IMG/VR virus record: IMGVR_UViG_3300019487_000003
Span: 1-64,000 of that record
Length of the DNA: 64,000 nt
Direction: 5' to 3' (one strand)
Source of the DNA: a virus
Shown here: one piece after another, positions 13,941-60,835 of the stretch
How positions within the stretch are numbered: position 1 is the stretch's first letter
How the letters are laid out: every line of letters begins with the position of its first letter
Program-made: the position numbers and the translations under genes
Notes under the pieces: model-generated
What the model saw: only the letters and a program-made list of their open reading frames with translations
Databases searched by the model: none
Told to the model about the DNA's origin: nothing

Positions 13941-14330
13941 ATGGTATCGAAAGAAAAAATTTTGGACAGTCTATACAGCAATTGTCAAAATCGTTCGTTG
14001 TCAACTAAAGAAGTTACAACAAAAATGATGAAAGATTTGGGTATTGTTTTGAACGATCAACAAATCAAAGACCTTCAGGATGCAATTCGTCCATATAAGA
14101 ATAGTGGAGCTGGTTTAGAAAAAACCATTCATGTTGTTGAATGTATCATCAATTCAAATACATTTGGCCACGGAAATTATTGCTATTCTCAACCCACGAG
14201 TTTAGATGCCGCAGATTTAACTTGGAATAAAATAGAATTAAACTCTATGGATAATTCTGATCTGCAATCAATCACCGACAAAATTTTTGATAATTTCTGG
14301 AAGACTTTTTTAACTTTACCAAATAATTGA
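13941..14330 (+). CDS. Hypothetical protein
   Basis: 129-aa ORF starting 2 nt after the upstream stop. Confidence 0.5.
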   Translation: MVSKEKILDSLYSNCQNRSLSTKEVTTKMMKDLGIVLNDQQIKDLQDAIRPYKNSGAGLEKTIHVVECIINSNTFGHGNYCYSQPTSLDAADLTWNKIELNSMDNSDLQSITDKIFDNFWKTFLTLPNN

Positions 14331-14343
14331 AATATGTTATAAT
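14315..14343 (+). promoter_or_regulatory. Sigma70-type promoter TTTACC-17-TGtTATAAT, 6 nt before the ATG at 14350
   Basis: Hexamers, spacer and extended -10 read directly. No SD lies between the -10 and the ATG. Confidence 0.6.
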
Positions 14344-14349
14344 CTTCCA

Positions 14350-15456
14350 ATGAAGATTGGTATAGTTACTGACAATCATGCTGGTTGTCGAAATGACAGC
14401 CCTGTTTTTGTCGAATATTGCATTTCATTTTTTGAAAAGCAGTTCATACCCTATTTGTTAGAGAACAAAATAGATTACGTCATTCATCTAGGCGACGTTT
14501 TTGATCGTCGCAAATATGTCAATTTCAATACTCTGTTTCAATGGCGCAACAGAGTTTTTGATGTCTTACAAAAACATAATATTAAAATGGATATCCTTTT
14601 GGGTAACCATGACATCTATTATAAGAATACAAACGATATTAATAGTGTTTATGAGTTACTGAGAGGATATACTAACATAACAATATATGATAAACCTTTA
14701 ACAATCGAAGTAGATAATCTTCCAATATTCTTTTTACCGTGGACTCCACAAGGGGGAGAAGAAAATACTTTTAATGCAATAAAAGAAACTAACTCAGATG
14801 TTTGTATGGGACATCTTGAGATTAAGGGTTTTGAAATGCACGCCGGACAAGTTAATAGAGAACATGGTTTTGACCATAATCTTTTTGATAAGTTCGATAT
14901 AGTTCTTAGTGGCCACTTTCATCATAAGTCGAATAAGGGTAATATTTACTATCTAGGTGCACCATATCAAATGACTTGGAATGATTGGGGTGATATAAGA
15001 GGATTTCATACATTTGATACACAAACAAGAGAATTGATTTTTATAGAGAATAAAAGACAGATTTTCACAAAACTTTTTTACAATGACGAGAATAAAACCT
15101 TTCAGCAAGTCATGAAGGAGAAATCCGCAATCACTCGTAGGAATGGAGAGCTAATAAACAATGATGATTTTTTTGAAGGTTTAAAAGAACTATATGTAAA
15201 AATCATTGTAGAAAGAAAAGACAATCCATATTGGTATGATCAGTTCCTAGATAAAGTTTATGCTTCAAGCCCTGCTGACGTTTCTATAGTTGATCAAACT
15301 TTACAATCATATTCAGAGGAAGAAATAGATAGCGCAAAAGATACATTAACAATATTAAAAGAGCATGTATCATCCTTAGGTATACCTCAGGAAGATGATT
15401 TGAACTTGTTGTTATCGAATCTTTACAACGAGGCTTTGTCATTGGATATTGAATGA
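14350..15456 (+). CDS. gp47: Mre11/SbcD-type recombination nuclease gp47
   Basis: Calcineurin-like phosphoesterase motifs 'TDNHAG', 'LGDVFD', 'GNHD', 'GHLE', 'GHFH'. Upstream of and overlapping gp46. Confidence 0.88.
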   Translation: MKIGIVTDNHAGCRNDSPVFVEYCISFFEKQFIPYLLENKIDYVIHLGDVFDRRKYVNFNTLFQWRNRVFDVLQKHNIKMDILLGNHDIYYKNTNDINSVYELLRGYTNITIYDKPLTIEVDNLPIFFLPWTPQGGEENTFNAIKETNSDVCMGHLEIKGFEMHAGQVNREHGFDHNLFDKFDIVLSGHFHHKSNKGNIYYLGAPYQMTWNDWGDIRGFHTFDTQTRELIFIENKRQIFTKLFYNDENKTFQQVMKEKSAITRRNGELINNDDFFEGLKELYVKIIVERKDNPYWYDQFLDKVYASSPADVSIVDQTLQSYSEEEIDSAKDTLTILKEHVSSLGIPQEDDLNLLLSNLYNEALSLDIE

Positions 15457-18878: not shown

Positions 18879-18907
18879 TTGACAACTGTTCCCCGATATG
18901 ATACAAT
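18879..18907 (+). promoter_or_regulatory. Sigma70-type promoter TTGACA-17-TGaTACAAT, 6 nt before the ATG at 18914
   Basis: Consensus -35, 17-nt spacer, extended -10. No SD before the ATG. Confidence 0.7.
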
Positions 18908-18913
18908 GTTCAT

Positions 18914-20950
18914 ATGAAGGCTGACAAACAACGACGCAAGCTGGAAATCGTGGCAAAGCTCATGGCCACAGAAAATATAGTTGTTGAGCATAGAAAAGTA
19001 TCTACAGCAGCATTTAATATTTCTCAACGGAAACTTATCCTTCCTGTCTGGAAGGAGATGAGTGAAGACCTTTATTCGATGTTAACAGCGCATGAGGTGG
19101 CCCATGCACTATACACAGAAAAAGATGTCTTCATGGAGAAGATTGTTAAACCGAAAGATTTAAGGATTAAGTCTGTCTTTAATTTGTTAGAAGATTCTCG
19201 TATAGAAAAATTAATACAAAAAAAGTTTCCTGGTCTTAAGCAGTCATTCAAAGTAGCTTACAAGGATATCTTTGAAAGAGATTTGTTAAAGACGCACGGA
19301 AAGGATATTAATAAAATCAAGTTTTTAGATAGAATTAATATCTATTACAAACTTGAATCACATGGGCTTGTAAAAGTAAATTTTTCCGAAAAAGAGTTAG
19401 AGTGGATAGATTTGATAGATAATTGCAAAACTATTAATCAAGTTATAGATTTATCTCATAAACTTTTAAAATATCTCGATGAGCAACAGGAAGAAGTTCC
19501 TGAGGATCAAGATGAAAATAATTCTGAGGAGAAATCGAGCGATGAAGAAGGCGATCCAGAAGAGATCCAAGATTCTTATGACCCAGCTCAATCAGATACC
19601 CAAGATGCACTAGATCAAGCGATAAAAAATTTACAAGATAATAATGCAAAAGATCCAGCATACCTAAATTTAGGTAAATTTGATCTTCCTAAAATTGTAA
19701 CTAATTTTAAGACAGTTCATAAAGAGATAAGAAGTCATTATGCTAGATATGCATCTGAATGGTCCGATGCCAAAAAAGCATTTGATGAATTTAAATTAAA
19801 AACGTTTCCTACTGTTAGTTATATGGCGCGTTTGTTTGAAATGAAAAAACGAGCAAAGGAAAGTTCGTTAATTAGGGTATCAAAAACTGGTATCTTAAAT
19901 ATGAACAAAATTTATAGCTACCAATATAACGATGATATATTCGAGAAGATGACAACAGCTTTAACTGGTAAAAGTCATGGACTGATAATGTATATAGATA
20001 TGTCCGCGAGCATGGAAGGTAACATGCGCGGGACAATAGAACAATTAATTTGTTTGGTTCTTTTTTGCCGAAAAGTCAAAATCCCTTTTGCTGTTTATGG
20101 TTTCAATGATATAAAATCAACAGGCAGAGAATATGGTATTTACCCTATAAGCGATTATCATAAATCTAACCTATCTGAAATATTGATTAGGAAGGGATTT
20201 GAGTTGAGAGAGTATTTTTCCTCAGAAATGACCCAAAGTGAATTATCTTTGGCATTTACAAATATGATGGCAGTTGCTTCTTTCTATGCAACAGAAAGGG
20301 GTATAGAAAGAACATGCCCTCCAACAGAAAGATTGGGTTCAACGCCCTTAAACGAAACTTTATTTTGTGCAACACAGATGGTTTCAGAATTTAAAAATAG
20401 GAACAAGATTGATATTGTCAATGTTGTTTTCTTAACAGACGGAGAGGCAACAGGTTCTTTAGTATATCAATCTGACGAAGGATATCCTAGATATGTTCAT
20501 GAACACGAACTTATATATCTTTATAGCAAAAAGAAAAAGAAAACATATTTACTCAAATCTGTTGAAGGTGGTTTCATGACAAATACTGATACCACAGAAT
20601 GTTTATTGAAAATTTTAAAAGATGTTTGTGATACAAATGTTATAGGTTTTTATATTTCATCGTCCGGTTTATCTCATTATGTTTCAAATGTAATGGATAA
20701 AGGTTCGCAGTCTTCGACAGTAAAAAATGCACAAAAAACTTTTCATGAAAATGGTGTTGTAGAACTTTCAAATGTGGGTTATGATTCCTATTTTATTATC
20801 AAGGGTGGAAAAAGTTTGAGGGCAACTGGGCATGAAATGTCTAATGATTATAGATATAAAGAATCCATATCAGATGATTTTCTTAAATACATGCAATCTA
20901 AAGTAGGAAGTAAAGGAATACTATCCAAATTCATACAAATAATTGCTTGA
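18914..20950 (+). CDS. cobT: CobT-like protein: N-terminal HExxH region, acidic linker, C-terminal vWA domain with MIDAS motif
   Basis: 'AHEVAHALYT', an acidic tract (aa ~190-230), 'MYIDMSASMEG' (DxSxS). Followed by a CobS/MoxR-like ATPase. Confidence 0.6.
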   Translation: MKADKQRRKLEIVAKLMATENIVVEHRKVSTAAFNISQRKLILPVWKEMSEDLYSMLTAHEVAHALYTEKDVFMEKIVKPKDLRIKSVFNLLEDSRIEKLIQKKFPGLKQSFKVAYKDIFERDLLKTHGKDINKIKFLDRINIYYKLESHGLVKVNFSEKELEWIDLIDNCKTINQVIDLSHKLLKYLDEQQEEVPEDQDENNSEEKSSDEEGDPEEIQDSYDPAQSDTQDALDQAIKNLQDNNAKDPAYLNLGKFDLPKIVTNFKTVHKEIRSHYARYASEWSDAKKAFDEFKLKTFPTVSYMARLFEMKKRAKESSLIRVSKTGILNMNKIYSYQYNDDIFEKMTTALTGKSHGLIMYIDMSASMEGNMRGTIEQLICLVLFCRKVKIPFAVYGFNDIKSTGREYGIYPISDYHKSNLSEILIRKGFELREYFSSEMTQSELSLAFTNMMAVASFYATERGIERTCPPTERLGSTPLNETLFCATQMVSEFKNRNKIDIVNVVFLTDGEATGSLVYQSDEGYPRYVHEHELIYLYSKKKKKTYLLKSVEGGFMTNTDTTECLLKILKDVCDTNVIGFYISSSGLSHYVSNVMDKGSQSSTVKNAQKTFHENGVVELSNVGYDSYFIIKGGKSLRATGHEMSNDYRYKESISDDFLKYMQSKVGSKGILSKFIQIIA

Positions 20951-20996: not shown

Positions 20997-21947
20997 ATGG
21001 AAACGCAGTCCTTAATCCCACAACTTAATCCTTTGTATGTAAAGTTTGGTCACTTCGATGATATTAAAACAATCATTGAGTCACGAAAATTTTACCCGAT
21101 TTTTATCACAGGTTTATCTGGTAATGGTAAAACATTAATGTCCGAGCAAATTTGCGCTTTATTAAAGCGCCGATTGTTCAGAGTCAATATAACTATTGAA
21201 TCAGATGAAGATGATACCTTGGGTGGTATGAGAATGTCAAATGGCACAACGACATGGCACGATGGACCGGTTGTCCAGGCTATGGAGGGTGGTGATATTC
21301 TTTTATTAGATGAAGTTGATTTAGCCTCTACAAAAATTATGTGTTTGCAACCGATCCTCGAAGGATCGGGAATCTACTTGAAAAAGATAAACCGTTATGT
21401 AAAACCTAAAGAGGGTTTCAACATAATTGCAACTGCAAATACTAAGGGTCAAGGAACAGAAAGCGATAAGTTTGTTGGAACAAATGTTTTGAATGAGGCC
21501 TTCTTAGAAAGATTCGCAGTAACCTTTGAACAACCTTATCCTAAAGCCGCAGTAGAAAGAACGATCTTAAAAAAGGTCTTTCAAAGCAATCTTCAAGACG
21601 ACGACGAATTTATTGAATTGCTTCTACAATGGGCAGACTCTATAAGAACAACTTTTGATAAAGATGGTATTTCAGAAGTTATTTCAACCCGTAGGCTTGT
21701 TCATATAGCTAATGCTTATGCAATGTTCAAGGATAGAAAGAAAGCACTAGAACTTTGCATTAATCGTTTTGACGAAACAATAAAGACTGGATTCTTAAGT
21801 CTTTTTGAAAAGTATGAACAGACTAAGGATGTTGCTCAATCAATAGAAAAGAAGGAACCGAAACCCCACCCTAAGGGAATGGATTTAGATTCAATTTTAG
21901 CCACAAATATTGATGTGGATAAGTTGATGAGTAAAATCAAGCCTTGA
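20997..21947 (+). CDS. cobS: CobS/MoxR-type AAA+ ATPase
   Basis: Walker A 'GLSGNGKT', Walker B 'ILLLDEVD', MoxR/CobS-like length and layout. Confidence 0.7.
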   Translation: METQSLIPQLNPLYVKFGHFDDIKTIIESRKFYPIFITGLSGNGKTLMSEQICALLKRRLFRVNITIESDEDDTLGGMRMSNGTTTWHDGPVVQAMEGGDILLLDEVDLASTKIMCLQPILEGSGIYLKKINRYVKPKEGFNIIATANTKGQGTESDKFVGTNVLNEAFLERFAVTFEQPYPKAAVERTILKKVFQSNLQDDDEFIELLLQWADSIRTTFDKDGISEVISTRRLVHIANAYAMFKDRKKALELCINRFDETIKTGFLSLFEKYEQTKDVAQSIEKKEPKPHPKGMDLDSILATNIDVDKLMSKIKP

Positions 21948-21982: not shown

Positions 21983-22024
21983 TGGTGGGAAAGTCTCATC
22001 AATATTAATAAAATGGAGAAACAT

Positions 22025-24832: not shown

Positions 24833-24840
24833 TATAAATA
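24833..24840 (+). promoter_or_regulatory. Perfect TATAAATA upstream of regA
   Basis: Intergenic, 17 nt upstream of the ATG at 24858. Confidence 0.4.
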
Positions 24841-24857: not shown

Positions 24858-25274
24858 ATGAAGGATAATATGGATATACTTGATAGCTTAATTGAAGTTA
24901 CGCTTAAAAAACCCGACGATTTTCTCAAGATTCGTGAAACATTAACACGTATAGGTGTTGCATCCCGTCACGAAAAAGTCTTGTATCAATCTTGCCATAT
25001 CTTACATAAAAGACAAAGATATTACCTTGTTCATTTCAAAGAATTGTTTAAGTTAGATGGTAAACCTTCTTCATTAAGTGAAGATGATTTAGCAAGAAGA
25101 AATACAATAGCAAACGTATTAGCGGAATGGGGCCTTTTAAATCTTGTTGATGCAAAGAAAAGTGAATCTCCTGTATGCGCTATAGGGCAAATAAAAATTC
25201 TTCCTTTCAAAGAAAAGAAAGAATGGAAGTTAGAAGCGAAGTATAATATTGGAGCAAAGAAACAAGTATTCTAA
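24858..25274 (+). CDS. regA: Translational repressor RegA
   Basis: 'IEVTLKKPDDFLKIRETLTRIGVA...KVLYQSCHILHKR..YYLVHFKELF' aligns with T4 RegA 'IEITLKKPEDFLKVKETLTRMGIA...KVLYQSCHILQKKGLYYIVHFKEML'. Alternative start at 24870 after AAGGA. Confidence 0.92.
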   Translation: MKDNMDILDSLIEVTLKKPDDFLKIRETLTRIGVASRHEKVLYQSCHILHKRQRYYLVHFKELFKLDGKPSSLSEDDLARRNTIANVLAEWGLLNLVDAKKSESPVCAIGQIKILPFKEKKEWKLEAKYNIGAKKQVF

Positions 25275-27166: not shown

Positions 27167-27508
27167 ATGGGATTTAATGAAGACAAAGTTTATATCGTTC
27201 GTTTAGTTTCTGGTGAAGAACTTCTGGCATTAGTTGAAACAGTTGGTGAAGGAATAGAAAAGGTTCATAATATTGAAGCACCATTTTTTGTATCACTTAA
27301 CCCAGGACCAAGTGGTGCCCCGCAAGTTCATCTTCAACCATTTCTTTTTATGCTTGATGAAGAAGATGAGACCAAACCTCTTCAACTCCCTGATAAAATT
27401 GTTGCTTTTAAATATCGTCCAGCAAAGGACATAAGAAGTAAATATAACGAAATTTATGTTAAAGCAACCACAGGACTTATCCTCCCGTCCACGAATCTAA
27501 AAATTTGA
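27167..27508 (+). CDS. Hypothetical protein, distant paralogue of 11798..12223
   Basis: The ATG after AAGGAG is preferred over the GTG at 27152. Pattern shared with 11798. Confidence 0.5.
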   Translation: MGFNEDKVYIVRLVSGEELLALVETVGEGIEKVHNIEAPFFVSLNPGPSGAPQVHLQPFLFMLDEEDETKPLQLPDKIVAFKYRPAKDIRSKYNEIYVKATTGLILPSTNLKI

Positions 27509-27533
27509 CAACAGATTTTAATTCTGTTATCAT
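27505..27533 (+). promoter_or_regulatory. Sigma70-type promoter TTGACA-17-TGtTATCAT, 6 nt before the ATG at 27540
   Basis: Consensus -35 overlapping the upstream stop codon, extended -10, no SD. Confidence 0.65.
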
Positions 27534-27539
27534 GGTGTT

Positions 27540-28988
27540 ATGAGTCAAGAGTTTTATACTAACTGCGTAACAGTTGGAAATAGAGTTTTATACCGAGGAT
27601 ATAAAAATGGTTCTCGTGTTCATCGTTCTATAGAATACAAACCTTCACTTTTCATATCCTCAAACAAATCTAGTAAATTTAAAACCCTTGAAGGTAAATC
27701 TGTTGAGAAAATAGAATTCTCTGGTATAGAGGATGCAAGAGAGTTTCTTAAGAAATACGAGAGTATAGACAATTTCACAGTATATGGTAATACAAATTAT
27801 CATTATTGTTATTTGTCAGATACATTTACTGGACAAGTAGATTATGATCCTAATCAGGTCAAAGTAATGTTTCTTGATATTGAAACCTCATATGAAGATG
27901 GTTTTCCTAATCCTCAATCTGTTCAAGAGCCAGTTATCGCTATTACAATTAAACTTAAAGACAAATTCTATGTCTATGGCACAAAAGAGTTTAAAACAGA
28001 AGACAAAAATGTATTTTATTTTAAGTGTGATGACGAAAAAGATTTGCTATCTCGTTTCGTGCAAAAATGGCAAGAACTAGACCCTGATATTATCAGTGGT
28101 TGGAATATTGAGGAGTTTGATATACCATATCTGATCAATCGTATCTCTCGTGTCCTTTCTGAAAAGGACTCTAATTCTTTATCTCCCTGGAAAAGACTTA
28201 GAACAAGGAAGGTTAAGTTACAGGGAAGAGAATATGATAATTTTGAATTGATAGGAATTTCGACACTTGATTATCTCCAGATGTATCGAAAGTTTGTTGG
28301 CACTGCTGAAAACTATAAATTGAACACTATCGCACAAATGGAATTGGGTGAAGGAAAGGTTCAGGGTGATATGAGAGATATGTATCACAATGATCACCAA
28401 AAGTTCATAGAATATAACATTCAGGACGTTGCACTTGTTGCAAAGATAGATCAAAAGATGGGACTCATTCAGATGCTTTGTGCAATTGCTTATGATGCCA
28501 AAGTGAATATTGTTGACACTTTTGCTCAAGTAAGATTATGGGATACTATTATCTTCAATGATTTTCGTCCCAAACATCTTGTAATGCCACAGAAAGCAAA
28601 ACACGATAAGGAAACTAGATATGCAGGAGCCTTCGTAAAAGAGCCTAAAGTTGGAATGCATAAATGGGTTGCATCATTTGACTTAGATTCTCTGTATCCT
28701 CATTTGCTTGCACAATATAATATATCTCCAGAAATGTTAGTTCCAGGAGCATTTAAAACAACTGATCTTGACAAACTCTTGAAAAAGGAATATGATTTGT
28801 CCTATTTGAAAGAAAGGGGTTTAACAATGGCAGCAAACGGACATCATTTTAAAACAGATAAAGAGGGGTTTCTCCCAGCTATCTTAATGAGAATGTATCA
28901 AGATAGAAAGGTTTACAAGAATAAGATGTTAGATTCACAGAATGAACTTGAAAGGGTCGAAGCTGAATTTAAAAGACGAGGGCTATAG
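27540..28988 (+). CDS. gp43: DNA polymerase (family B, gp43) N-terminal cistron: exonuclease domain and palm motif A
   Basis: Exo I 'FLDIET', Exo II 'GWNIEEFDIPYL', Exo III 'YNIQDVALV', motif A 'SFDLDSLYPH'. Ends with TAG about 85 aa after motif A. Confidence 0.92.
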   Translation: MSQEFYTNCVTVGNRVLYRGYKNGSRVHRSIEYKPSLFISSNKSSKFKTLEGKSVEKIEFSGIEDAREFLKKYESIDNFTVYGNTNYHYCYLSDTFTGQVDYDPNQVKVMFLDIETSYEDGFPNPQSVQEPVIAITIKLKDKFYVYGTKEFKTEDKNVFYFKCDDEKDLLSRFVQKWQELDPDIISGWNIEEFDIPYLINRISRVLSEKDSNSLSPWKRLRTRKVKLQGREYDNFELIGISTLDYLQMYRKFVGTAENYKLNTIAQMELGEGKVQGDMRDMYHNDHQKFIEYNIQDVALVAKIDQKMGLIQMLCAIAYDAKVNIVDTFAQVRLWDTIIFNDFRPKHLVMPQKAKHDKETRYAGAFVKEPKVGMHKWVASFDLDSLYPHLLAQYNISPEMLVPGAFKTTDLDKLLKKEYDLSYLKERGLTMAANGHHFKTDKEGFLPAILMRMYQDRKVYKNKMLDSQNELERVEAEFKRRGL

Positions 28989-28991
28989 TGT

Positions 28992-29369
28992 ATGCCAAAA
29001 TCAAATAAAGCTAAGGAGTTTGTAAAGAAAATGGATAAGCTCCGAAATAAGAAACCCGGTGAAGTTGATTATGTTGAGGTCCTAGAAAACATTCTAATTT
29101 CTGAGGAGCCTCTTGATACTCTTGTAAGATTACCTTTTGGACAATTGATTAATGTTGGTCTGGATAAACTTTTACAGAATCTTTCTGTTTTAGCAATCGG
29201 AACAGATGACGATGGCCAATTCAAAATCGATAAGTTGGGAGTAGAACTTGCAGGAGTTGTAGATCAAGATATAGTTTTTAGAGTTACAGGAACACTTCAA
29301 AAATATAAGGTCGAGCATAAAAAATTGCCTGCGATAAAGAAATCAAAGAAGAAAAAGAAGGCCTCTTGA
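28992..29369 (+). CDS. Hypothetical protein encoded inside the split polymerase gene
   Basis: 125 aa, Lys-rich termini. Starts 3 nt after the stop of the polymerase N-cistron. No nuclease or intein motif seen. Confidence 0.55.
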   Translation: MPKSNKAKEFVKKMDKLRNKKPGEVDYVEVLENILISEEPLDTLVRLPFGQLINVGLDKLLQNLSVLAIGTDDDGQFKIDKLGVELAGVVDQDIVFRVTGTLQKYKVEHKKLPAIKKSKKKKKAS

Positions 29370-29854
29370 AAAGAACAGATTATATAAGTTGGGATCAGTA
29401 TTTCATGTCTGTTGCACTTCTTTCGGCGCAACGTAGTAAGGATCCAAGCACACAAGTTGGTGCATGTATAGTTTCTCCAAGTAAAAGAGTAGTTGGTGTT
29501 GGATACAATGGTTTCCCAAATAAATGTCCAGATGATCAATTACCTTGGGGAAAAGATTCTGAGGACGAAAACGAAACCAAATATCCCTATTGCGTTCATG
29601 CAGAACTAAATGCAATCTTAAATACAACACAAATGGGCTTGAAGAATTGCACAATTTATGTTACACTCTTCCCTTGTTCTGATTGCACTAAGGCGATCAT
29701 TCAATCTGGAATTACACACGTTATCTATTTAAATGAAATAATTAAACCAAGATACTTGCACAGTATGGAAGCATCTAAAAGAATGTTAGACCTTGCTAGT
29801 ATACCTTATTCAAAATTTGAAAAGACTGGTAGATATATCTGCCTTGAATTATGA
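29366..29854 (+). CDS. cd: dCMP deaminase
   Basis: 'WDQYFMSVALLSAQRSKDP', zinc motifs 'CVHAELNAI' and 'PCSDCTKAI'. TTG start in a TTGA overlap with the upstream stop. Confidence 0.88.
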   Translation: MKRTDYISWDQYFMSVALLSAQRSKDPSTQVGACIVSPSKRVVGVGYNGFPNKCPDDQLPWGKDSEDENETKYPYCVHAELNAILNTTQMGLKNCTIYVTLFPCSDCTKAIIQSGITHVIYLNEIIKPRYLHSMEASKRMLDLASIPYSKFEKTGRYICLEL

Positions 29855-30963
29855 TTGACCTTACAAAATTGTCAGATAAAGAATTAGTTGCATACAAGCA
29901 AAAGATTTCATTTGATGCTTCAAAATACAAGAATCTTCAGCTTGCCAAAAAAGTTCAATTAAACGCCGCCTATGGTGCTCTTGGTAATGAATACTTTCGA
30001 TTCTTTGATGTGCGTCAAGCTGAGGCAGTTACTATTTCAGGACAATTTGCCATTCGTTGGATTGAAAGAGATTTGAATTTATACCTAAACAAGGTTTTGA
30101 AGACAGAGAATGTTGATTATGTCATAGCGGCCGATACAGATTCAGTCTATTTAAATTTATCTTTTATAGTAGATGCTGGCTTTGGAGACAAGCCACAAGA
30201 GCCACAAAAGGTTGTTGATTTTCTTGATAAGTTTTCTAATCAGGGATTGCAAAAAGAAATTGAGCGTTCTTATAATGCTCTTGCAGATTACGTTAATGCA
30301 TTTTCACAAAAGATGAGAATGAAAAGAGAATCAATTGCAGATAGAGGTATTTGGACATCTAAGAAGCGTTATATAATGAATGTTTATGATGCTGAAGGTG
30401 TTAGATATACAACACCCAAACTTAAGATTATGGGAATCGAAGCAATCAAATCTTCAACTCCACAATATTGTCGAGACAAGATTAAGGAAGCAATTAAACT
30501 TATCCTGAACAAATCCGAAACAGATTTACATTCATATATCCAAGATGTAGAAAAGGAATTTAAAAATCTCCCTCCGGAAGAAGTTTCCTTTCCTCGTTCA
30601 TGTAATGGACTCATGAAATATTTTGATCATCAAAATGTTGCAAAATCTGGAACACCTATTCATGTTAGGGGTTCTTTGATATATAACAAGCTAGTAAAAG
30701 AAAAGAAACTCACTAAGAAATATCCATTGATACAAGATGGGAACAAAATCAGATTTTTATATTTGAAGGAACCCAATCCTGTCCAAAGTCATGTTCTTTC
30801 TATTGTCGATGGACTTCCTGAGGAGTTTTCACTTGAAAAGTATATCGATTATGATATACAATTCGATAAGGCATTTAAAGAGCCTCTTCGGAGCATATTG
30901 GATGCTATAGGGTGGGGAACAGAAAAGAAAAGAGATTTGTCGTCATTTTTCATTGATGGGTAA
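29851..30963 (+). CDS. gp43: DNA polymerase (family B, gp43) C-terminal cistron: motif B, motif C and thumb
   Basis: Motif B 'KKVQLNAAYGALG', motif C 'VIAADTDSVY', 'KKRY'. ATGA overlap with the cd stop codon. Confidence 0.92.
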   Translation: MIDLTKLSDKELVAYKQKISFDASKYKNLQLAKKVQLNAAYGALGNEYFRFFDVRQAEAVTISGQFAIRWIERDLNLYLNKVLKTENVDYVIAADTDSVYLNLSFIVDAGFGDKPQEPQKVVDFLDKFSNQGLQKEIERSYNALADYVNAFSQKMRMKRESIADRGIWTSKKRYIMNVYDAEGVRYTTPKLKIMGIEAIKSSTPQYCRDKIKEAIKLILNKSETDLHSYIQDVEKEFKNLPPEEVSFPRSCNGLMKYFDHQNVAKSGTPIHVRGSLIYNKLVKEKKLTKKYPLIQDGNKIRFLYLKEPNPVQSHVLSIVDGLPEEFSLEKYIDYDIQFDKAFKEPLRSILDAIGWGTEKKRDLSSFFIDG

Positions 30964-32351: not shown

Positions 32352-33768
32352 ATTGGAAAGACTCATTCTCAGTGGTTTACTGAGTAGTGATAGTTATACT
32401 CGAAAAGTTCTTCCAATACTACAACCAGATTTTTTTCAAGATAATTCCGAAAAAATTGTTTTCTCGCAGATACAATTATTCATAACAAAATACAATAATC
32501 TTCCTACCAAAGAATCACTTCTAATACAGGTTAGTCAAATCAATGGATTGAAACCTGAAGTCTTTAAAGAAGTTTCCGAAATTATTTCTCATCTCTCTTA
32601 TGAGAAGCCTGTTAATGAAGAATTTTTATTAGAGCAAACAGATAATTTTGCAAAGGGCAGTGCTTTCTTTGGTGCTCTTAAAAAGAGTGTTCTTTTAGCA
32701 GAAGAATTTCAACAGACAAAATCTCCTCAGAGTTTAGGTCAAGCAACAAAATATTTTCAAGATGCGTTATCAATATCTCTTGATCCTAAAGTTGGTCATT
32801 CATATACAGAAGATTACCACGAAAGATACGAATACATGCACCGAAAGATTGAAAAGGTGCCATTCGATTTAACATACTTGAATAAGATAACAGGTGGTGG
32901 GACAGAAAAGGGAACACTTAATATCATCCTAGCAGGAACAGGTGTCGGAAAAACTCTTGCAATGTGCCACCTTGCTGCGGCAGCGTTCATGGATGGTAAG
33001 AATGTATTATACATTACTCTTGAAATGTCCGAAGAAAAAATCCTTCAAAGAATAGATGCAAACCTTTTAAATGTTGCTATTGATGAACTTGATAAACTTC
33101 CTGAAGATATATGGCAAAAGAAAGTAGAAGGTGTTAAAAATAAGACCTTAGGAAAATTACAAGTAAAAGAATATCCTACAGCACAAGCTGGAGTAAATCA
33201 TTTTAGACATTTGATAACAGAACTGGCATTAAAGAAAAAATTTGTTCCAGATATTATATTTGTGGATTATCTGAATATAGCTATTAGCTCAAGAATTAAA
33301 CCTGGGACAAGAACAAATAGTTATGAATATGTTAAAGCTATTGCAGAAGAATTAAGAGGCCTTGCCTGCGAAGCGGGAGTCCCATTGTGGAGCGCAACTC
33401 AAACAAATAGAGCAGGATTCAATTCAAGTGATGTTGGATTGGATGATACCTCTGAAAGTTTTGGTGTTCCTATGACTGCGGATTTAATGATTGCATTGAC
33501 AAGAACAGAGGAACTTGATAAAATAGGACAGATGGCAATAACTCAGTTAAAGAATCGTTATGGAGATTTGGCCTATTATCGTCGTTTTATTATTGGTGTG
33601 GATAGGTCCAAGATGCGTCTTTTTGATGTTGAGCAAAAAGCACAAGAAGGACTGATCGACGCGGGCCATGATAAAGAAGACAAGCCAGCATTTGATGTTT
33701 CTCGTTTTGGTAAAGGTATGACTGCTGAGAAAAAAGATTTCAGTGCTATCAAATTTTCGGATGATTAA
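32335..33768 (+). CDS. gp41: Replicative DnaB-family helicase gp41
   Basis: Walker A 'AGTGVGKT', 'IFVDYLN', DnaB-type C-terminal domain. T4-like position next to uvsX. Confidence 0.88.
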   Translation: MMLTDRLERLILSGLLSSDSYTRKVLPILQPDFFQDNSEKIVFSQIQLFITKYNNLPTKESLLIQVSQINGLKPEVFKEVSEIISHLSYEKPVNEEFLLEQTDNFAKGSAFFGALKKSVLLAEEFQQTKSPQSLGQATKYFQDALSISLDPKVGHSYTEDYHERYEYMHRKIEKVPFDLTYLNKITGGGTEKGTLNIILAGTGVGKTLAMCHLAAAAFMDGKNVLYITLEMSEEKILQRIDANLLNVAIDELDKLPEDIWQKKVEGVKNKTLGKLQVKEYPTAQAGVNHFRHLITELALKKKFVPDIIFVDYLNIAISSRIKPGTRTNSYEYVKAIAEELRGLACEAGVPLWSATQTNRAGFNSSDVGLDDTSESFGVPMTADLMIALTRTEELDKIGQMAITQLKNRYGDLAYYRRFIIGVDRSKMRLFDVEQKAQEGLIDAGHDKEDKPAFDVSRFGKGMTAEKKDFSAIKFSDD

Positions 33769-44790: not shown

Positions 44791-44819
44791 TTGACAGAAT
44801 CTAAATACGTGTATATCAT
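44791..44819 (+). promoter_or_regulatory. Sigma70-type promoter TTGACA-17-TATCAT
   Basis: Starts immediately after the upstream stop codon. ATG at 44838 downstream. Confidence 0.55.
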
Positions 44820-44837
44820 ATAATATGAGTGATTAAT

Positions 44838-45884
44838 ATGAAAAAAGTTTTGTTTGTAATTATCACAATTTTTGTTCTAGCTTGTGGATCTGGTGGTGGT
44901 TCAGGTGATGAAGCAGAATCTTTTCCGACAAGACTTCAAAATCCTGTTTTTGAAAATATTAGTCCAATAGGACTCTCATCATTTTCTCTTGGCGTTCCAG
45001 ATAAATTTCCTTTTGAAGACGCACAACAAACACCAGAGGGTATCGGTTTTAAAACAGTTGCTCGTTCTGTTAGACATATAGCCACAAACGAATTGTTTAA
45101 CTTTCCTGAGCCTGCAAGTAAACTTCAAGTTGAAGCATATCTTAAATCTTTTGTTGACGCTGGGCATATAGTTACCCATGAAATACACATTTTAAACGGC
45201 CCCGGAATGCGTAAAGAAGGGGATGAATATGTTAATGCGTTTTATGGTAAAAATATAGGTGATAAAAAGTTTGTCGCAGATTTGCCACACAATGCAGGTC
45301 TCCAAGAATATATCCGAAAAAGATTTGTGGAGGCAGTAGAACATGCTAGAGTTTTGGAGAGTTATGGTATTCAAGTTTTGATTTGTCCAGAGTTAGAAGA
45401 TAATCACGATGCTGATACGGAATCAAAAAATGCTAAACTAACTTCTTATGGGATATTAATTAAGTTTTTAACAGATGCGGGTTGGTCGCGCCAAAGTATT
45501 GTTAGAAATGGTGGTAAAATTCATGCAATCCCAGACATAAGATACGAAAGACACCCAGGCCAACCTAAGGATGCAAACTCTGTTTTAGCAGGTTTGCGCC
45601 CAGGTGATGTATTCAATATGGATGGTGTATCATTTCGTTTTGATGACGAGTCAGGAAAGGAATGTATCTATTCAGAAGATCAGGTCAGAAAAATAAGAGA
45701 CGAGGCAATGAATCGAGGAATTATATTCTACATCTGGCATTCCGATCTACAAGGATTATATTATAATGGGTGTGCATATAAACACGTACCCCATAGAAAT
45801 AACCGTATCTATACTTTAGTGAAACCAATTCGTTTCATTAGTATATTATTGGGAATACGTCCCGAAGAAGTTGTGATTGAATAA
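44838..45884 (+). CDS. Predicted lipoprotein (function unknown)
   Basis: 'MKKVLFVIITIFVLACGSGGG' is a signal peptide with a lipobox-like VLAC followed by a Gly/Ser linker. Confidence 0.6.
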   Translation: MKKVLFVIITIFVLACGSGGGSGDEAESFPTRLQNPVFENISPIGLSSFSLGVPDKFPFEDAQQTPEGIGFKTVARSVRHIATNELFNFPEPASKLQVEAYLKSFVDAGHIVTHEIHILNGPGMRKEGDEYVNAFYGKNIGDKKFVADLPHNAGLQEYIRKRFVEAVEHARVLESYGIQVLICPELEDNHDADTESKNAKLTSYGILIKFLTDAGWSRQSIVRNGGKIHAIPDIRYERHPGQPKDANSVLAGLRPGDVFNMDGVSFRFDDESGKECIYSEDQVRKIRDEAMNRGIIFYIWHSDLQGLYYNGCAYKHVPHRNNRIYTLVKPIRFISILLGIRPEEVVIE

Positions 45885-49539: not shown

Positions 49540-49750
49540 GTTTGTCCCAGCGACAGAATTTGATTCTACAAAACCTATTGTAGTTAATACTCCATTCTTC
49601 CCTAAGGTATTAAAGGCTAAACGCTCGAAAAGAGCACAGCCTGTTACTCCCGGGACAGAGCCGGCGAAAACTATTAGGTTCAATCCTAGATTGATACTTG
49701 AAAAACTTTCAGAGCTTGAAGCAAGAATCAAAAAACTTGAAGAAAAATAG
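49436..49750 (+). CDS. Basic hypothetical protein overlapping the upstream gene by 104 nt (start uncertain)
   Basis: The ORF fills the otherwise empty 49540-49750. C-terminal coiled coil 'LEKLSELEARIKKLEEK'. Confidence 0.35.
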   Translation: MSQEKKKRKKKEKEATVTVSSHPSEPGSKDFSDYKFVPATEFDSTKPIVVNTPFFPKVLKAKRSKRAQPVTPGTEPAKTIRFNPRLILEKLSELEARIKKLEEK

Positions 49751-49765
49751 TATTCATGTTATACT
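49737..49765 (+). promoter_or_regulatory. Sigma70-type promoter TTGAAG-17-TGtTATACT, 6 nt before the ATG at 49772
   Basis: Read directly. No SD. Confidence 0.6.
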
Positions 49766-49771
49766 ATTAAC

Positions 49772-50791
49772 ATGAGTTTTTATAATGATGTTACTTACAT
49801 TTGTCTTCTTTCTGGTTCTCTAAGGAACTTTAAAAGAAAGAAGGACGATCTCTTTAATTGCTCCTGCCCTTATTGCGGCGATAGTCAAAAGGATAAACAT
49901 AAAGCACGAGGCTACTTCTTTAAGCAAGGAGATAGCATGATTTACAAGTGTCATAATTGCGGCCAGTCTGCAAGCACCGCAAATGTATTAAAGTTTCTGA
50001 ACCCACAACTTTATCAAGAATATATCTTTCATCGTTATAAGGAAAATGCAAACACTCCTGAAAAGGAAACAAATTCTCTAAAAGAAAATGTTACACAAAC
50101 TATAAAGTTTAAATCAGTAGATTTGCCATCTATCAAAGATTTGCCCGATGAGCACTATGCAAAAAAGTATATTCTTGCTCGAAAAATTCCTTCCAATAAG
50201 TTAGATAGACTATTCTTCGCAGATAGGTGGGGACAATGGGTTGAGAAGTATATTGATAAGAAATATTCAAACGAACCTCAAGATCATAGAATTGTAATGC
50301 CTTTCTTTGATGAAAAGGGAAATCTTGTTGGTGCTCAAGGAAGATCACTTTCTGCCGACAAAAGGATGCGGTACCTATCTGCTAAAGCAACAGATGTTTT
50401 ACATATGACATTTGGTTTAGAAAGATGGAACAAATTTGAAAAGACTTATGTAGTTGAAGGTCCTATTGATAGCCTGTTCTTACCAAATGCTTTAGCAGCA
50501 TCTACCTCAGATTTACATTCTGTGATTGATCGTGTCCCAGAATTGAACAAAGAAAATACAATCTTTGTTTTTGATAATGAACCACATTCAAAGGAAATTG
50601 GGGAATTGATGAGGAAAGTTATTGATGATGGATATAAAATTACTTTCTGGCCAAAAACTTTGAAAGAGAAGGATGTCAATGATATGGTTTTATCTGGGTT
50701 GACTCTTGAAAAGATTATTGATATAATCGAGTCTGGGACAAAATCTGGTTTAAGAGCAGAGATAGAATTTGCTTCCTGGAAGAAATATTAA
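49772..50791 (+). CDS. gp61: DNA primase gp61 (zinc ribbon plus TOPRIM)
   Basis: 'CSCPYCGDS...YKCHNCG' zinc ribbon. TOPRIM 'YVVEGPIDSLFL' and 'FVFDNEP'. Confidence 0.88.
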   Translation: MSFYNDVTYICLLSGSLRNFKRKKDDLFNCSCPYCGDSQKDKHKARGYFFKQGDSMIYKCHNCGQSASTANVLKFLNPQLYQEYIFHRYKENANTPEKETNSLKENVTQTIKFKSVDLPSIKDLPDEHYAKKYILARKIPSNKLDRLFFADRWGQWVEKYIDKKYSNEPQDHRIVMPFFDEKGNLVGAQGRSLSADKRMRYLSAKATDVLHMTFGLERWNKFEKTYVVEGPIDSLFLPNALAASTSDLHSVIDRVPELNKENTIFVFDNEPHSKEIGELMRKVIDDGYKITFWPKTLKEKDVNDMVLSGLTLEKIIDIIESGTKSGLRAEIEFASWKKY

Positions 50792-52191: not shown

Positions 52192-54117
52192 ATGCCGGCC
52201 AATCTTCCAAGTGTCTATCAGCAATACATTCATCTTTCAAGATATTCAAGATGGTTACCTGAGGAAAAAAGACGAGAGACTTGGACCGAAACAGTTGGAA
52301 GATATTTTGATTTCTTTGAGGAACATCTTAAAGAAACTCTTAACTACAAACTATCAAAAGATTTGCGAAGGGAATTGGAAACAGCAGTTCTTAATCTTGA
52401 AATCATGCCATCAATGCGGTGCCTAATGACCGCAGGACCAGCACTTAAAAGAGAAAACTTGGCCGGATTCAATTGTTCTTTTGTAGCAGTTGATTCAGTT
52501 CGTGCATTTGATGAAATCCTTTATGTTCTTATGAATGGAACGGGAGTTGGGTTTTCAGTTGAAAGACAATTCATTAACGAATTGCCCGTTATCTCAGAAG
52601 AAATGTATGAAACATCCTCAACAATTGTTGTTGATGATTCTAAAATTGGGTGGGCAAAAGCACTTAAAGAACTTGTTAGCATGTTGTATGTCGGACAAAT
52701 TCCAAAATGGGACCTAAGCAAGGTACGCCCTGCTGGAGCGATTTTAAAAACGTTCGGTGGTAGAGCTAGTGGTCCAGAACCATTGAATCAGTTATTTCAT
52801 TTTACAGTTGCAAAATTCCGCGAAGCAGCGGGAAGAAAATTAAATTCTTTGGAATGTCATGATATTATTTGTAAGATTGCAGATGTTGTAGTTGTTGGTG
52901 GAGTTAGACGTTCAGCATTGATAAGTTTGAGTAATTTGTCAGACGAAAGAATGAGACAAGCAAAATCTGGTCAATGGTGGTTAGAAAATGCCCAGAGAGC
53001 ACTTGCAAATAATTCAGCTTGTTATACAGAAAAACCTGACATGGGAATATTCATGTCAGAATGGAAAGCACTTTATGATTCTAAATCTGGTGAAAGAGGT
53101 GTCTTTAATAGAATTGCAGCTTTAGAACATTCAAAGAAATATGGAAGAAGAAATATAGATCATCATTTCGGAACAAACCCATGTGGAGAAATCATCCTTC
53201 GATCATTGGGTTTGTGCAACCTATCAGAAGTTGTTATTAAACCACATGATGAGCCAGATGATCTTAAAAGAAAAATAAGACTGGCAACGATACTTGGGAC
53301 ATTTCAGTCAACATTGGTTAATTACAAGTATGTAAGAAAGGCTTGGTATAACAATGCTATTGAAGAATCTCTTTTGGGAGTATCTCTTACAGGTATAATG
53401 GATAACTCTCTTTTGAACCAGGCATCTTGCGGTAAACAACTTCCCTTGGGAATTCTCTTGGAAGATTTGAGAGAGGTTGCGGTTAAAACAAATAAGGAGT
53501 GGGCAAAGAAATTAGATATTAATGAAAGTGTAGCAATCACAACTGTTAAACCATCCGGGACTGTATCTCAGCTTGTAGATTGTGCTTCTGGTATTCATGC
53601 AAGACATTCTGAATATTACATAAGAACAGTTAGAGCCGATAACAAAGATCCGCTTTGTATAATGATGAAAGAGATGGGTTTTCCTAATGAGCCAGATGTA
53701 ACAAAACCAGAACATACAACTGTCTTTAGTTTTCCTATAAAGTCTCCTCCCAATTCTACTTTAAGGTGCGACTTAACTGCTGTAGATCAACTTGAATTTT
53801 GGAAGGTTTATCGAAATCATTATTGCGAACACAACCCATCAATAACAGTGAGTGTTAAAGAAAATGAATGGTTAGAAGTCGCCGCATGGGCCTATAAACA
53901 TTTCAATGAAATTGGTGGAGTTTCTTTCTTACCATTCAGTGATTATGTTTATAGACAAGCACCATATCAAGAATGTTCCAAAGAAGAATACGAAAAATTG
54001 TTAGAACAAATTCCAAAGGATGTTGACTGGTCACAACTTTCCAACTACGAAAAAGAAGATATGACATCTGGAATGCAGGAACTTTCTTGTGTTGCTGGGA
54101 CCTGTGAGATTATCTAA
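52192..54117 (+). CDS. nrdJ: Ribonucleotide reductase, class II (adenosylcobalamin-type, NrdJ-like)
   Basis: Active-site 'TNPCGEI', single-chain 641 aa, C-terminal Cys pair 'CVAGTCEII'. No NrdB-like gene in the window. Confidence 0.8.
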   Translation: MPANLPSVYQQYIHLSRYSRWLPEEKRRETWTETVGRYFDFFEEHLKETLNYKLSKDLRRELETAVLNLEIMPSMRCLMTAGPALKRENLAGFNCSFVAVDSVRAFDEILYVLMNGTGVGFSVERQFINELPVISEEMYETSSTIVVDDSKIGWAKALKELVSMLYVGQIPKWDLSKVRPAGAILKTFGGRASGPEPLNQLFHFTVAKFREAAGRKLNSLECHDIICKIADVVVVGGVRRSALISLSNLSDERMRQAKSGQWWLENAQRALANNSACYTEKPDMGIFMSEWKALYDSKSGERGVFNRIAALEHSKKYGRRNIDHHFGTNPCGEIILRSLGLCNLSEVVIKPHDEPDDLKRKIRLATILGTFQSTLVNYKYVRKAWYNNAIEESLLGVSLTGIMDNSLLNQASCGKQLPLGILLEDLREVAVKTNKEWAKKLDINESVAITTVKPSGTVSQLVDCASGIHARHSEYYIRTVRADNKDPLCIMMKEMGFPNEPDVTKPEHTTVFSFPIKSPPNSTLRCDLTAVDQLEFWKVYRNHYCEHNPSITVSVKENEWLEVAAWAYKHFNEIGGVSFLPFSDYVYRQAPYQECSKEEYEKLLEQIPKDVDWSQLSNYEKEDMTSGMQELSCVAGTCEII

Positions 54118-54150: not shown

Positions 54151-54384
54151 ATGGAGAAAATGATGCGTAAAAAGAAAGTTGATTTGACTTGTGATTCATG
54201 TGATCTATCTTTTAGTGTCCAACATTCAACTAAAGAGCCAGTTTTATTTTGCACATTTTGTGGAGAAGAATTAACAATCAATAAGGCACATGAACGGCCT
54301 TTGTTAGATTCTTTTGAAGAATTGGATGAATTTGATGAAGAAACTTATATCGATGACGATGAAGATTATTCTGAGGAGGAATAA
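54151..54384 (+). CDS. Zinc-ribbon protein with an acidic tail
   Basis: 'CDSCDLSF...CTFCGEEL' followed by a D/E-rich C-terminus. Alternative starts at 54160 and 54163. Confidence 0.5.
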   Translation: MEKMMRKKKVDLTCDSCDLSFSVQHSTKEPVLFCTFCGEELTINKAHERPLLDSFEELDEFDEETYIDDDEDYSEEE

Positions 54385-59927: not shown

Positions 59928-59956
59928 TTTACATATTTTCGATTTTGTTATAGAAT
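59928..59956 (+). promoter_or_regulatory. Sigma70-type promoter TTTACA-17-TAGAAT, 6 nt before the ATG at 59963
   Basis: Read directly. No SD. Confidence 0.6.
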
Positions 59957-59962
59957 AGATAA

Positions 59963-60835
59963 ATGATCGTCGTTGACTTTAACCAAACCCTTATTTCTAG
60001 TTTGATGAGCCAAATTGGTTCAAACCCAAACAAAGAACTTTCAGAAAATCTTATCAGACACATGGTATTGTCTGCTATTCTATCATACAAGAAAAAATTC
60101 GGGGCCGAATTTGGGCAACTTGTGTTTGCTGCCGATGACAAAAATTATTGGAGAAAGGATATTTTTCCTTACTATAAGGCAGGGCGAAAGAAGATGAGAG
60201 AGGAGTCAGGTTTTGACTGGAAACTTATCTTCAATACTCTTAACAAGATTCGTGACGAAATCAAGGAATACTTTCCTTATAAGGTTATCCAGGTAGACAA
60301 GGCAGAAGCAGATGATATTATTGCCACACTTTGCAAACATGCTCCAGTTAAACGTGTAGGATTGTTTGAACAAGAAGAACCTATCCTAATTGTATCAGGA
60401 GACAAAGACTTTCTCCAATTACACAAGTATAGTAACGTAAAACAATATTCACCTATCCTGAAAAAGTATCTTTATACAGATTCACCAGAAAAATATTTAA
60501 AGGAACATATTCTCAAGGGTGACAGAGGAGATGGAATACCAAACTTCTTGTGTGAAGATTCGAGAATAGTTGATGGAATAAAACAGACTGGAATTTCAGA
60601 AAAGAAATTATTTGTTTGGGTGCAACAAAATCCAGAAGATTTTTGTAACGAAGCTCAATTAAGGAACTATAATCGTAACAAACAATTAGTTGATCTTACA
60701 TATATACCAGAGAACATTGAGAAACAAATATTGGAAAAGTTTGCGGAAGAACCAAAGGGTGCAAAAAGCAAACTGTTCAATTATTTTGTGAGCAATGGAT
60801 TGAAACATTTAATGGAGAATTTGGCGGACTTTTAA
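59963..60835 (+). CDS. rnh: RNase H / 5'-3' flap exonuclease (T4 rnh)
   Basis: 'YWRKDIFPYYKAGRK', 'KAEADDIIA' and 'SGDKDFLQLHKYSNVKQYSP' align with T4 RNase H 'YWRRDFAYYYKKNRG', 'KYEADDHIA' and 'SSDGDFTQLHKYPNVKQWSP'. Confidence 0.92.
   Translation: MIVVDFNQTLISSLMSQIGSNPNKELSENLIRHMVLSAILSYKKKFGAEFGQLVFAADDKNYWRKDIFPYYKAGRKKMREESGFDWKLIFNTLNKIRDEIKEYFPYKVIQVDKAEADDIIATLCKHAPVKRVGLFEQEEPILIVSGDKDFLQLHKYSNVKQYSPILKKYLYTDSPEKYLKEHILKGDRGDGIPNFLCEDSRIVDGIKQTGISEKKLFVWVQQNPEDFCNEAQLRNYNRNKQLVDLTYIPENIEKQILEKFAEEPKGAKSKLFNYFVSNGLKHLMENLADF

Follow-up and report, generated by a model that had tools for sequence, protein, structure and literature searches.

The DNA analyzed here, positions 1 to 64,000 of IMG/VR virus record IMGVR_UViG_3300019487_000003 (64,000 nucleotides [nt], referred to below as the window), carries five putative promoters that each end exactly 6 nt before the ATG of a gene, an arrangement that would give mRNAs beginning at their own start codon. 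The window belongs to an uncultured T4-like myovirus with the gene order of Syn9-type cyanomyoviruses, namely, gp47-gp46, CobT-like/"peptidase," CobS, gp45, gp44, RegA, gp43, UvsX, and gp41, followed later by gp61, RNR, and RNase H. Its genes all lie on the + strand and are tightly packed, at a GC content of about 35%. The identity of its proteins to those of cultured phages is only about 44% at best, and the DNA polymerase shows about 44% identity to that of the closest cultured phages, which are cyanomyoviruses. No tRNAs were found in the 64-kb window, and no host-specific auxiliary genes were found among the window proteins scanned.

The five open reading frames (ORFs) concerned were identified as gp47/Mre11-like (start at 14350, with gp46 next downstream), CobT-like (18914; phrog_459, a homologue of Syn9 gp150), the N-terminal part of a split gp43 DNA polymerase (27540), the gp61 primase (49772), and RNase H (59963). 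The sequences in front of them are as follows.

Site 1, 14315..14352, + strand: -35 hexamer TTTACC (14315-14320), 17 nt, TGt and -10 hexamer TATAAT (14338-14343), cttcca, ATG at 14350; gene for gp47 (Mre11-like nuclease), 14350-15456.
Site 2, 18879..18916, + strand: -35 hexamer TTGACA (18879-18884), 17 nt, TGa and -10 hexamer TACAAT (18902-18907), gttcat, ATG at 18914; CobT-like gene, 18914-20950.
Site 3, 27505..27542, + strand: -35 hexamer TTGACA (27505-27510), 17 nt, TGt and -10 hexamer TATCAT (27528-27533), ggtgtt, ATG at 27540; gene for the gp43 N-terminal part, 27540-28988.
Site 4, 49737..49774, + strand: -35 hexamer TTGAAG (49737-49742), 17 nt, TGt and -10 hexamer TATACT (49760-49765), attaac, ATG at 49772; gene for gp61 primase, 49772-50791.
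Site 5, 59928..59965, + strand: -35 hexamer TTTACA (59928-59933), 17 nt, -10 hexamer TAGAAT (59951-59956), agataa, ATG at 59963; gene for RNase H, 59963-60835.

This geometry of -35 hexamer, 17-nt spacer, -10 hexamer, 6 nt, and ATG had been proposed for all five genes in a preliminary description of the window, and direct reading confirmed it at 5/5 sites. The TGn extension of the -10 hexamer, said there to be frequent, was present at sites 1 to 4, while the RNase H site had no TGn in register. Agreement with the consensus was 9 to 11 of 12 positions, with a 17-nt spacer throughout. Sites 2 and 3 matched at 11/12 positions together with the TG extension and were, alongside a match at 28768 without TG, the best + strand matches in the region from 12 to 31 kb. 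The features that define extended -10 promoters of the sigma70 type (a TTGACA-like -35, a spacer of 16 to 18 nt, TGn, and a TATAAT-like -10) were thus all found, with TGn at four of the sites. The -35 hexamer of site 1 sits within the 3' end of the upstream ORF (stop at 14330), the stop codon of the ORF upstream of site 3 is the TGA inside TTGACA, and the ORF upstream of site 4 stops at 49750. At site 2, the gap between ORFs is 55 nt.

In each of the five ORFs, no earlier start than the ATG is available downstream of the preceding in-frame stop, and all five ATGs were judged to be true gene starts, as alignments with homologues begin at or near residue 1. Efficient leaderless initiation requires an AUG at the 5' terminus, and the start codon is ATG in 5/5 cases. 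For gp47, Pfam Metallophos matches from the first residue on, and alignments with 150 representative homologues are mostly 1-to-1. The polymerase has a conserved F5-Y6-T7 right behind Met1, homologues of the primase are of equal length with a coverage of about 100%, and in RNase H conservation begins at Met1, with the motif MI(V/L)(V/I)DFNQTLIS. In the CobT-like protein, a conserved block opens at about residue 11, ahead of the next Met, and its N terminus aligns with that of Syn9 gp150. The two parts of the polymerase gene (27540-28988 and 29851-30963) are separated by an ORF without a family match (28992-29369) and a dCMP deaminase gene (29366-29854; PF00383); metagenomic homologues of gp43 are mostly N parts too, of about 485 amino acids.

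The preliminary description had also pointed to the lack of a Shine-Dalgarno sequence at the five sites. The absence itself was borne out, with anti-Shine-Dalgarno duplex energies of +1.5 to -2.1 kcal/mol, but it proved nondiagnostic in this window. A recognizable Shine-Dalgarno sequence was present at only about 31% of the 71 gene starts scored, and since about 69% lack one, its absence at any particular start is weak evidence. Judged from these starts, initiation independent of Shine-Dalgarno sequences, together with translational coupling, is the norm in this phage. The starts with strong Shine-Dalgarno sequences belong mostly to structural genes, with a small number of metabolic and other genes among them (e.g., RNR at 52192, and the gene at 54384), and many genes are translationally coupled. 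As a contrast to the five sites, promoters with ordinary leaders had been named at five other positions. Those at 20947, 27121, 40545, and 46562 do have GGAG or AGAGG leaders, but the promoter given as 21954 begins at 21944, and no clear Shine-Dalgarno sequence precedes its ATG at 22013.

The distance between promoter and start codon was examined with a sigma70 weight matrix (-35, spacer of 16 to 18 nt, -10, and a bonus for TGn; threshold of at least 9.5 bits), which was applied at every offset upstream of gene starts. Matches were found at a gap of 6 nt for five gene starts, at gaps 0 to 5 and 7 to 16 for none, and at gaps 17 to 27 for six. As a null model, the 70-nt upstream regions were dinucleotide shuffled 2000 times; the mean at gap 6 was 0.03, and no offset ever held more than 2. 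Promoter matches within 30 nt of a start numbered 11, compared to a mean of 0.73 in the shuffles, and under an even placement of 11 promoters across 31 offsets, the probability that any offset holds at least 5 was 3.6e-4. An excess of the 6-nt spacing over shuffled sequence, which had been proposed beforehand as a check, was therefore found in the window. A loose consensus scan gave no enrichment over shuffles (76 versus 75.7), from which it was deduced that only the high-scoring sites carry the signal, and plain TANNNT was not enriched at gap 6 beyond the five sites. The leader lengths implied by these gaps are bimodal in the window, at either 0 nt or at least 11 nt. Very short leaders perform poorly, and the avoidance of gaps 7 to 16 fits with this. 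Mapped 5' ends in Lactococcus cremoris are likewise bimodal, with leaders of <5 nt or of about 14 nt and longer (PMC10986495).

The same gene starts were then compared in relatives at IMG/VR loci, where only ATG starts were searched, so that these loci give no information on start-codon choice. The comparison indicates that the 6-nt geometry has been kept, while the surrounding sequence has diverged, for the polymerase, the primase, and gp47; for the CobT-like gene this applies to one locus, and for RNase H it does not apply. In the polymerase of L001 (69% identical), the arrangement is TTGACT/17/TAAGAT/6/ATG, with both the spacer and the 6-nt stretch differing from those of the window. Among 75 loci with polymerases of 41 to 48% identity, a scoring promoter stood at gap 6 in 9 to 11, at gap 7 in 2, and almost nowhere else below 17. 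These gap-6 loci belong to several lineages and have varied upstream contexts. Within one clade, some members have a -10 inserted after the upstream stop and before the ATG, while others show direct coupling (L015 and L041); this was taken to reflect promoter gain and loss. The polymerase start overlaps the upstream ORF in S-SSM4 and ACG-2014f, which are therefore uninformative about a promoter at this gene. Syn9, of which 100 of 177 kb were examined, has no scoring promoter less than 14 nt from a start, and its replication genes overlap upstream ORFs.

Near relatives of the primase gene gave TGaTATCTT-6-ATG (L248 and L249, 53%) and TGaTATATT-6-ATG (L250, 56%). Across 84 primase loci, 9 had the promoter at gap 6 and 6 at gap 7, while a marine group had it at gaps 10 to 12 and P-HM1 at gap 20. 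Ten primase starts (L093, L094, L099, L122, L133, L134, L136, L142, L147, and L159) have in common TTGAC(A/T)-N17-TATATT-N11-ATG, which implies a conserved, very short leader of about 4 to 5 nt without a Shine-Dalgarno sequence. In L248 (3250-3322), a perfect 9-bp hairpin (AATCTTGTT/AACAAGATT) lies right before the primase TGaTATCTT, at the -35 position; to judge from the sequence, it looks like a terminator followed by a promoter without a -35. For gp47, 3 of 68 loci (L269, L310, and L321) have the 6-nt geometry, no other gap below 24 was found, and the remainder are coupled to the upstream ORF. The only CobT-like locus with the 6-nt version is L528 (TTTACT/17/TAGAAT/6/ATG). Marine cyanophage-like contigs (L453-L532) instead have a conserved TGcTATAAT 20 to 24 nt before the ATG of the CobT-like gene, mostly with a purine-rich, Shine-Dalgarno-like leader. 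From the conserved box, a dedicated promoter for the CobT-like gene is deduced throughout the family, and a comparison of the marine contigs with L528 indicates that this promoter is leadered in one lineage and abuts the start in another.

The spacing was also sampled independently of these genes. At least 120 IMG/VR stretches with TTGACA-N14-TGN-TATAAT and an ATG within 20 nt were collected, a sample that is unbiased as to the gap. The ATGs among the matches listed peaked at gap 6, with 25 compared to 1 to 16 at other gaps. The peak was sharper still for those ATGs among the same matches that open ORFs of at least 50 codons, with 16 at gap 6 compared to 6 and 5 at gaps 5 and 7, respectively, and no more than 4 at any other gap. 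The 6-nt geometry is not special to this phage. Its sharp recurrence across many phage contigs from metagenomes suggests that environmental phages use leaderless initiation more often than the cultured models T4, Syn9, and phiKZ imply.

The interpretation of these data depends on where transcription would begin. The bacterial -10 hexamer occupies positions -12 to -7, and the start normally falls on the 7th base past it; a gap of 6 nt thus places +1 on the A of the ATG. At sites 2 to 4, pyrimidines flank this A, which makes it the favored purine start. The proposal in the preliminary description that transcription starts on the start codon was strongly supported by the sharp gap, the conservation, and the bimodal leaders, all of them features of sequence. 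We infer that the five elements are probably sigma70-type promoters producing leaderless mRNAs. Both the placement of the promoters and the leaderless reading appear strong for four sites and weaker for RNase H.

Several observations weigh against this interpretation. The base before the ATG is also an A at sites 1 and 5, so that +1 could be off by one at these sites. The RNase H promoter is the weakest of the five, scoring only 9.8 to 9.9 bits and having no TGn. Its geometry had been expected to be conserved in relatives but was not: in L245 (69% identical), the gene is coupled to the ORF before it (TAGtATG), and Shine-Dalgarno leaders precede the gene at most of 70 further loci. No clear promoter was seen at the polymerase of L251 (59% identical). 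Most relatives couple these genes to the upstream ORF instead, from which it was concluded that the start-abutting arrangement is optional rather than essential. Finally, the five ATGs could be translated from read-through transcripts, as their neighbors are.

The last two points lead to the alternative that survives best, although it was considered unlikely. The promoters could be real but serve the downstream operon, the first gene being translated mainly from read-through mRNA without a Shine-Dalgarno sequence and the 6-nt gap being a product of genome compaction. The co-oriented, tightly packed genes, the large proportion of starts without a Shine-Dalgarno sequence (about 69%), the overlap of the -35 boxes with upstream ORF ends at sites 1 and 3, and the usual coupling of the same genes in relatives, without a promoter, would all agree with this. 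Compaction by itself, however, would not be expected to pile the promoters up at exactly 6 and to leave gaps 0 to 5, where the AUG would be lost, and 7 to 16 empty. Space is, moreover, not limiting at site 2, with its 55 nt between ORFs, and the matches listed from unrelated IMG/VR contigs show the 6-nt peak before long ORFs as well.

It was deemed quite improbable that some or all of the matches are chance occurrences or AT-rich sequences other than promoters, such as an enhancer of translation or, on read-through RNA, a site bound by a regulator. The RNase H site would be the best candidate, as it has the lowest score, no TGn, and no conservation, and at about 35% GC loose consensus matches are no more common than in shuffles. 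At the polymerase, the spacer of site 3 forms an imperfect palindrome (27506-27532; TGACAACAGA ... TCTGTTATCA) that links the -35 and the -10 and could fold just upstream of the AUG on read-through RNA; the T4 gp43 translational operator resembles such a fold. A role of the palindrome as an RNA operator or a repressor site was considered, but as a general explanation it was rejected: in L001 and other relatives the promoter geometry is conserved and the palindrome is not. The co-occurrence of a -35, a 17-nt spacer, and TGn at four sites and the 5 matches observed at gap 6 where shuffles gave 0.03 also speak against chance, and the plain TANNNT motif was not in excess at that gap beyond the five sites.

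A phage-specific promoter class, either T4 middle (MotA/AsiA dependent) or T4 late (gp55/gp33 dependent), would agree with the delayed-early/middle expression of these genes in T4 and with the presence of late-type TATAAATA boxes in the window (7/7 on the + strand), but it is highly improbable here, as the hexamers TTGACA, TTTACA, TTTACC, and TTGAAG at 17 nt are not a MotA box (TGCTT near -30), TATAAATA occurs at 0/5 of the -10 boxes with all 7 of the window elsewhere, and no MotA or AsiA homologue was present among the annotated window proteins, most small ORFs not having been scanned. The TATAAATA boxes lie mostly just upstream of structural genes, with one at 24833 before the RegA gene, and their count does not exceed the shuffle expectation.

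If the five elements are promoters of leaderless mRNAs, the following mechanism is proposed. The RNA polymerase of the host, carrying its primary, sigma70-type sigma factor, would recognize them as promoters of the extended -10 type, typical of T4-type early promoters. With 5'-AUG at its very beginning, the transcript would have neither a 5' untranslated region nor a ribosome-binding site, and the ribosome together with the initiator tRNA would bind the 5'-terminal AUG directly. Each promoter would head a block of replication or recombination genes, these being gp47-gp46; the CobT-like gene; the gp43 N part through the gp43 C part, UvsX, and gp41; the primase and genes downstream; and RNase H and genes downstream. 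The five genes are probably also present on longer read-through transcripts, so that the leaderless promoters would add a second, independently controllable route of expression. A special host that translates leaderless mRNA efficiently, which had been suggested as a requirement, is not needed, as ordinary bacteria translate leaderless AUG mRNAs, as E. coli does for lambda cI.

The purpose of such a route is a matter of speculation, whether it be timing or escape from the RegA repressor. A homologue of this translational repressor is encoded at 24858-25274 (PF01818, E = 7e-43), and escape from it is conceivable because leaderless mRNAs have no upstream ribosome-binding region. In its broadest form, the idea would be that leaderless transcripts constitute a distinct regulatory class for replication and recombination in several uncultured T4-like (cyanophage-related) lineages without MotA/AsiA, escaping RegA, responding differently to changes in initiation factors, and providing an independently evolved translational timing switch like that of phiYS40. 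This was regarded as a doubtful extension. If it were true, the IMG/VR-wide peak at 6 nt would mean that leaderless expression is common and has been overlooked in environmental phages.

Two further promoter matches of the window have an ATG close behind them. The first (33496-33534; TTGACA/17/TGa-TAAAAT, 14.7 bits) is among the strongest in the window and is found within the 3'-terminal part of the gp41 helicase gene, where an in-frame ATG at 33532 follows 7 nt past it, 78 codons before the gp41 stop. Judged from its position, it could drive the downstream methylase gene or produce a leaderless C-terminal fragment. In the second (44791-44840; TTGACA/17/TATCAT), 5 nt separate the promoter from a 3-codon mini-ORF (ATG AGT GAT TAA, 44825-44836), and the ATG at 44838 of a gene for 348 amino acids without an assigned function comes 1 nt further on. 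The arrangement suggests that the mini-ORF may be leaderless and coupled to the real start at 44838.

We know of no settled account of how early and middle (replication) expression are separated in T4-like phages without MotA/AsiA, and replication genes with leaderless promoters of their own would offer a concrete, testable handle on this. There are also consequences for annotation: such genes may be given wrong starts by gene callers that require a ribosome-binding site, and promoter predictors may drop a match when an ATG follows it directly. The preliminary description stated that no systematic leaderless early/middle class was known to its author in T4-like phages. In agreement with this, a full-text search of a literature library for leaderless expression combined with T4-like phages or cyanophages gave nothing relevant, only citations of GeneMarkS-2 and uses of the word in other senses.

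The closest comparison within the T4-like phages is with the early promoters of T4 and of Syn9-type cyanophages, which share the architecture of -35, 17 nt, TGn, and -10. Syn9 also shares the gene order gp47-gp46, CobT-like/peptidase, CobS, gp45, gp44, regA, gp43, uvsX, gp41, and gp61, but it differs in having no promoter at less than 14 nt from a start in the 100 kb examined. Marine cyanophage-like contigs differ in that their CobT-like promoter stands 20 to 24 nt upstream rather than 6 nt as here. The classic leaderless phage mRNAs in E. coli are the lambda cI mRNA from P_RM and that of phage P2 gene V. In these, as proposed for the window, +1 of a sigma70 promoter coincides with the A of the AUG, and translation proceeds without a Shine-Dalgarno sequence; they are, however, single regulatory genes of temperate phages, whereas here the mRNAs would come from several replication genes of a lytic T4-like phage.

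Leaderless middle and late mRNAs are also made by phage P23-45. In the Thermus thermophilus myovirus phiYS40, most middle and late mRNAs are leaderless, and infection reportedly raises IF2 and lowers IF3, favoring leaderless translation (review, PMC3594737). Both phiYS40 and the phage of the window are large lytic phages with a class of genes on leaderless mRNAs, a status that for the window was deduced from sequence. In contrast, phiYS40 is not T4-like, its host phylum uses leaderless mRNAs widely, and most of its middle and late transcripts are concerned rather than a handful of replication genes. With this precedent, a use of leaderless mRNAs in phage timing would, by analogy, not be new in kind. 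No leaderless transcript was detected in phiKZ (PMC8244752).

Among bacteria, a -10 box a few base pairs before the ORF was found experimentally to drive leaderless genes in Deinococcus, with a spacing requirement and with a stronger promoter when a -35 was added (PMC12340547). The leaderless genes of Deinococcus-Thermus, Actinobacteria, and Lactococcus resemble the five sites in having a TANNNT -10 a few base pairs before the start and no ribosome-binding site, and their transcription from or next to the AUG is what is predicted for the five sites as well. They differ in being part of a genome-wide host strategy, often with a -10 alone, whereas here 5 of about 72 genes have full -35/-10 promoters (with TGn at four) and stand beside leadered Shine-Dalgarno genes and coupled genes. 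The window would thus present a familiar leaderless arrangement as a small class of replication-gene promoters in a T4-like phage, and since the mechanism is well known, what it adds is an extension of an established concept, not a new concept.

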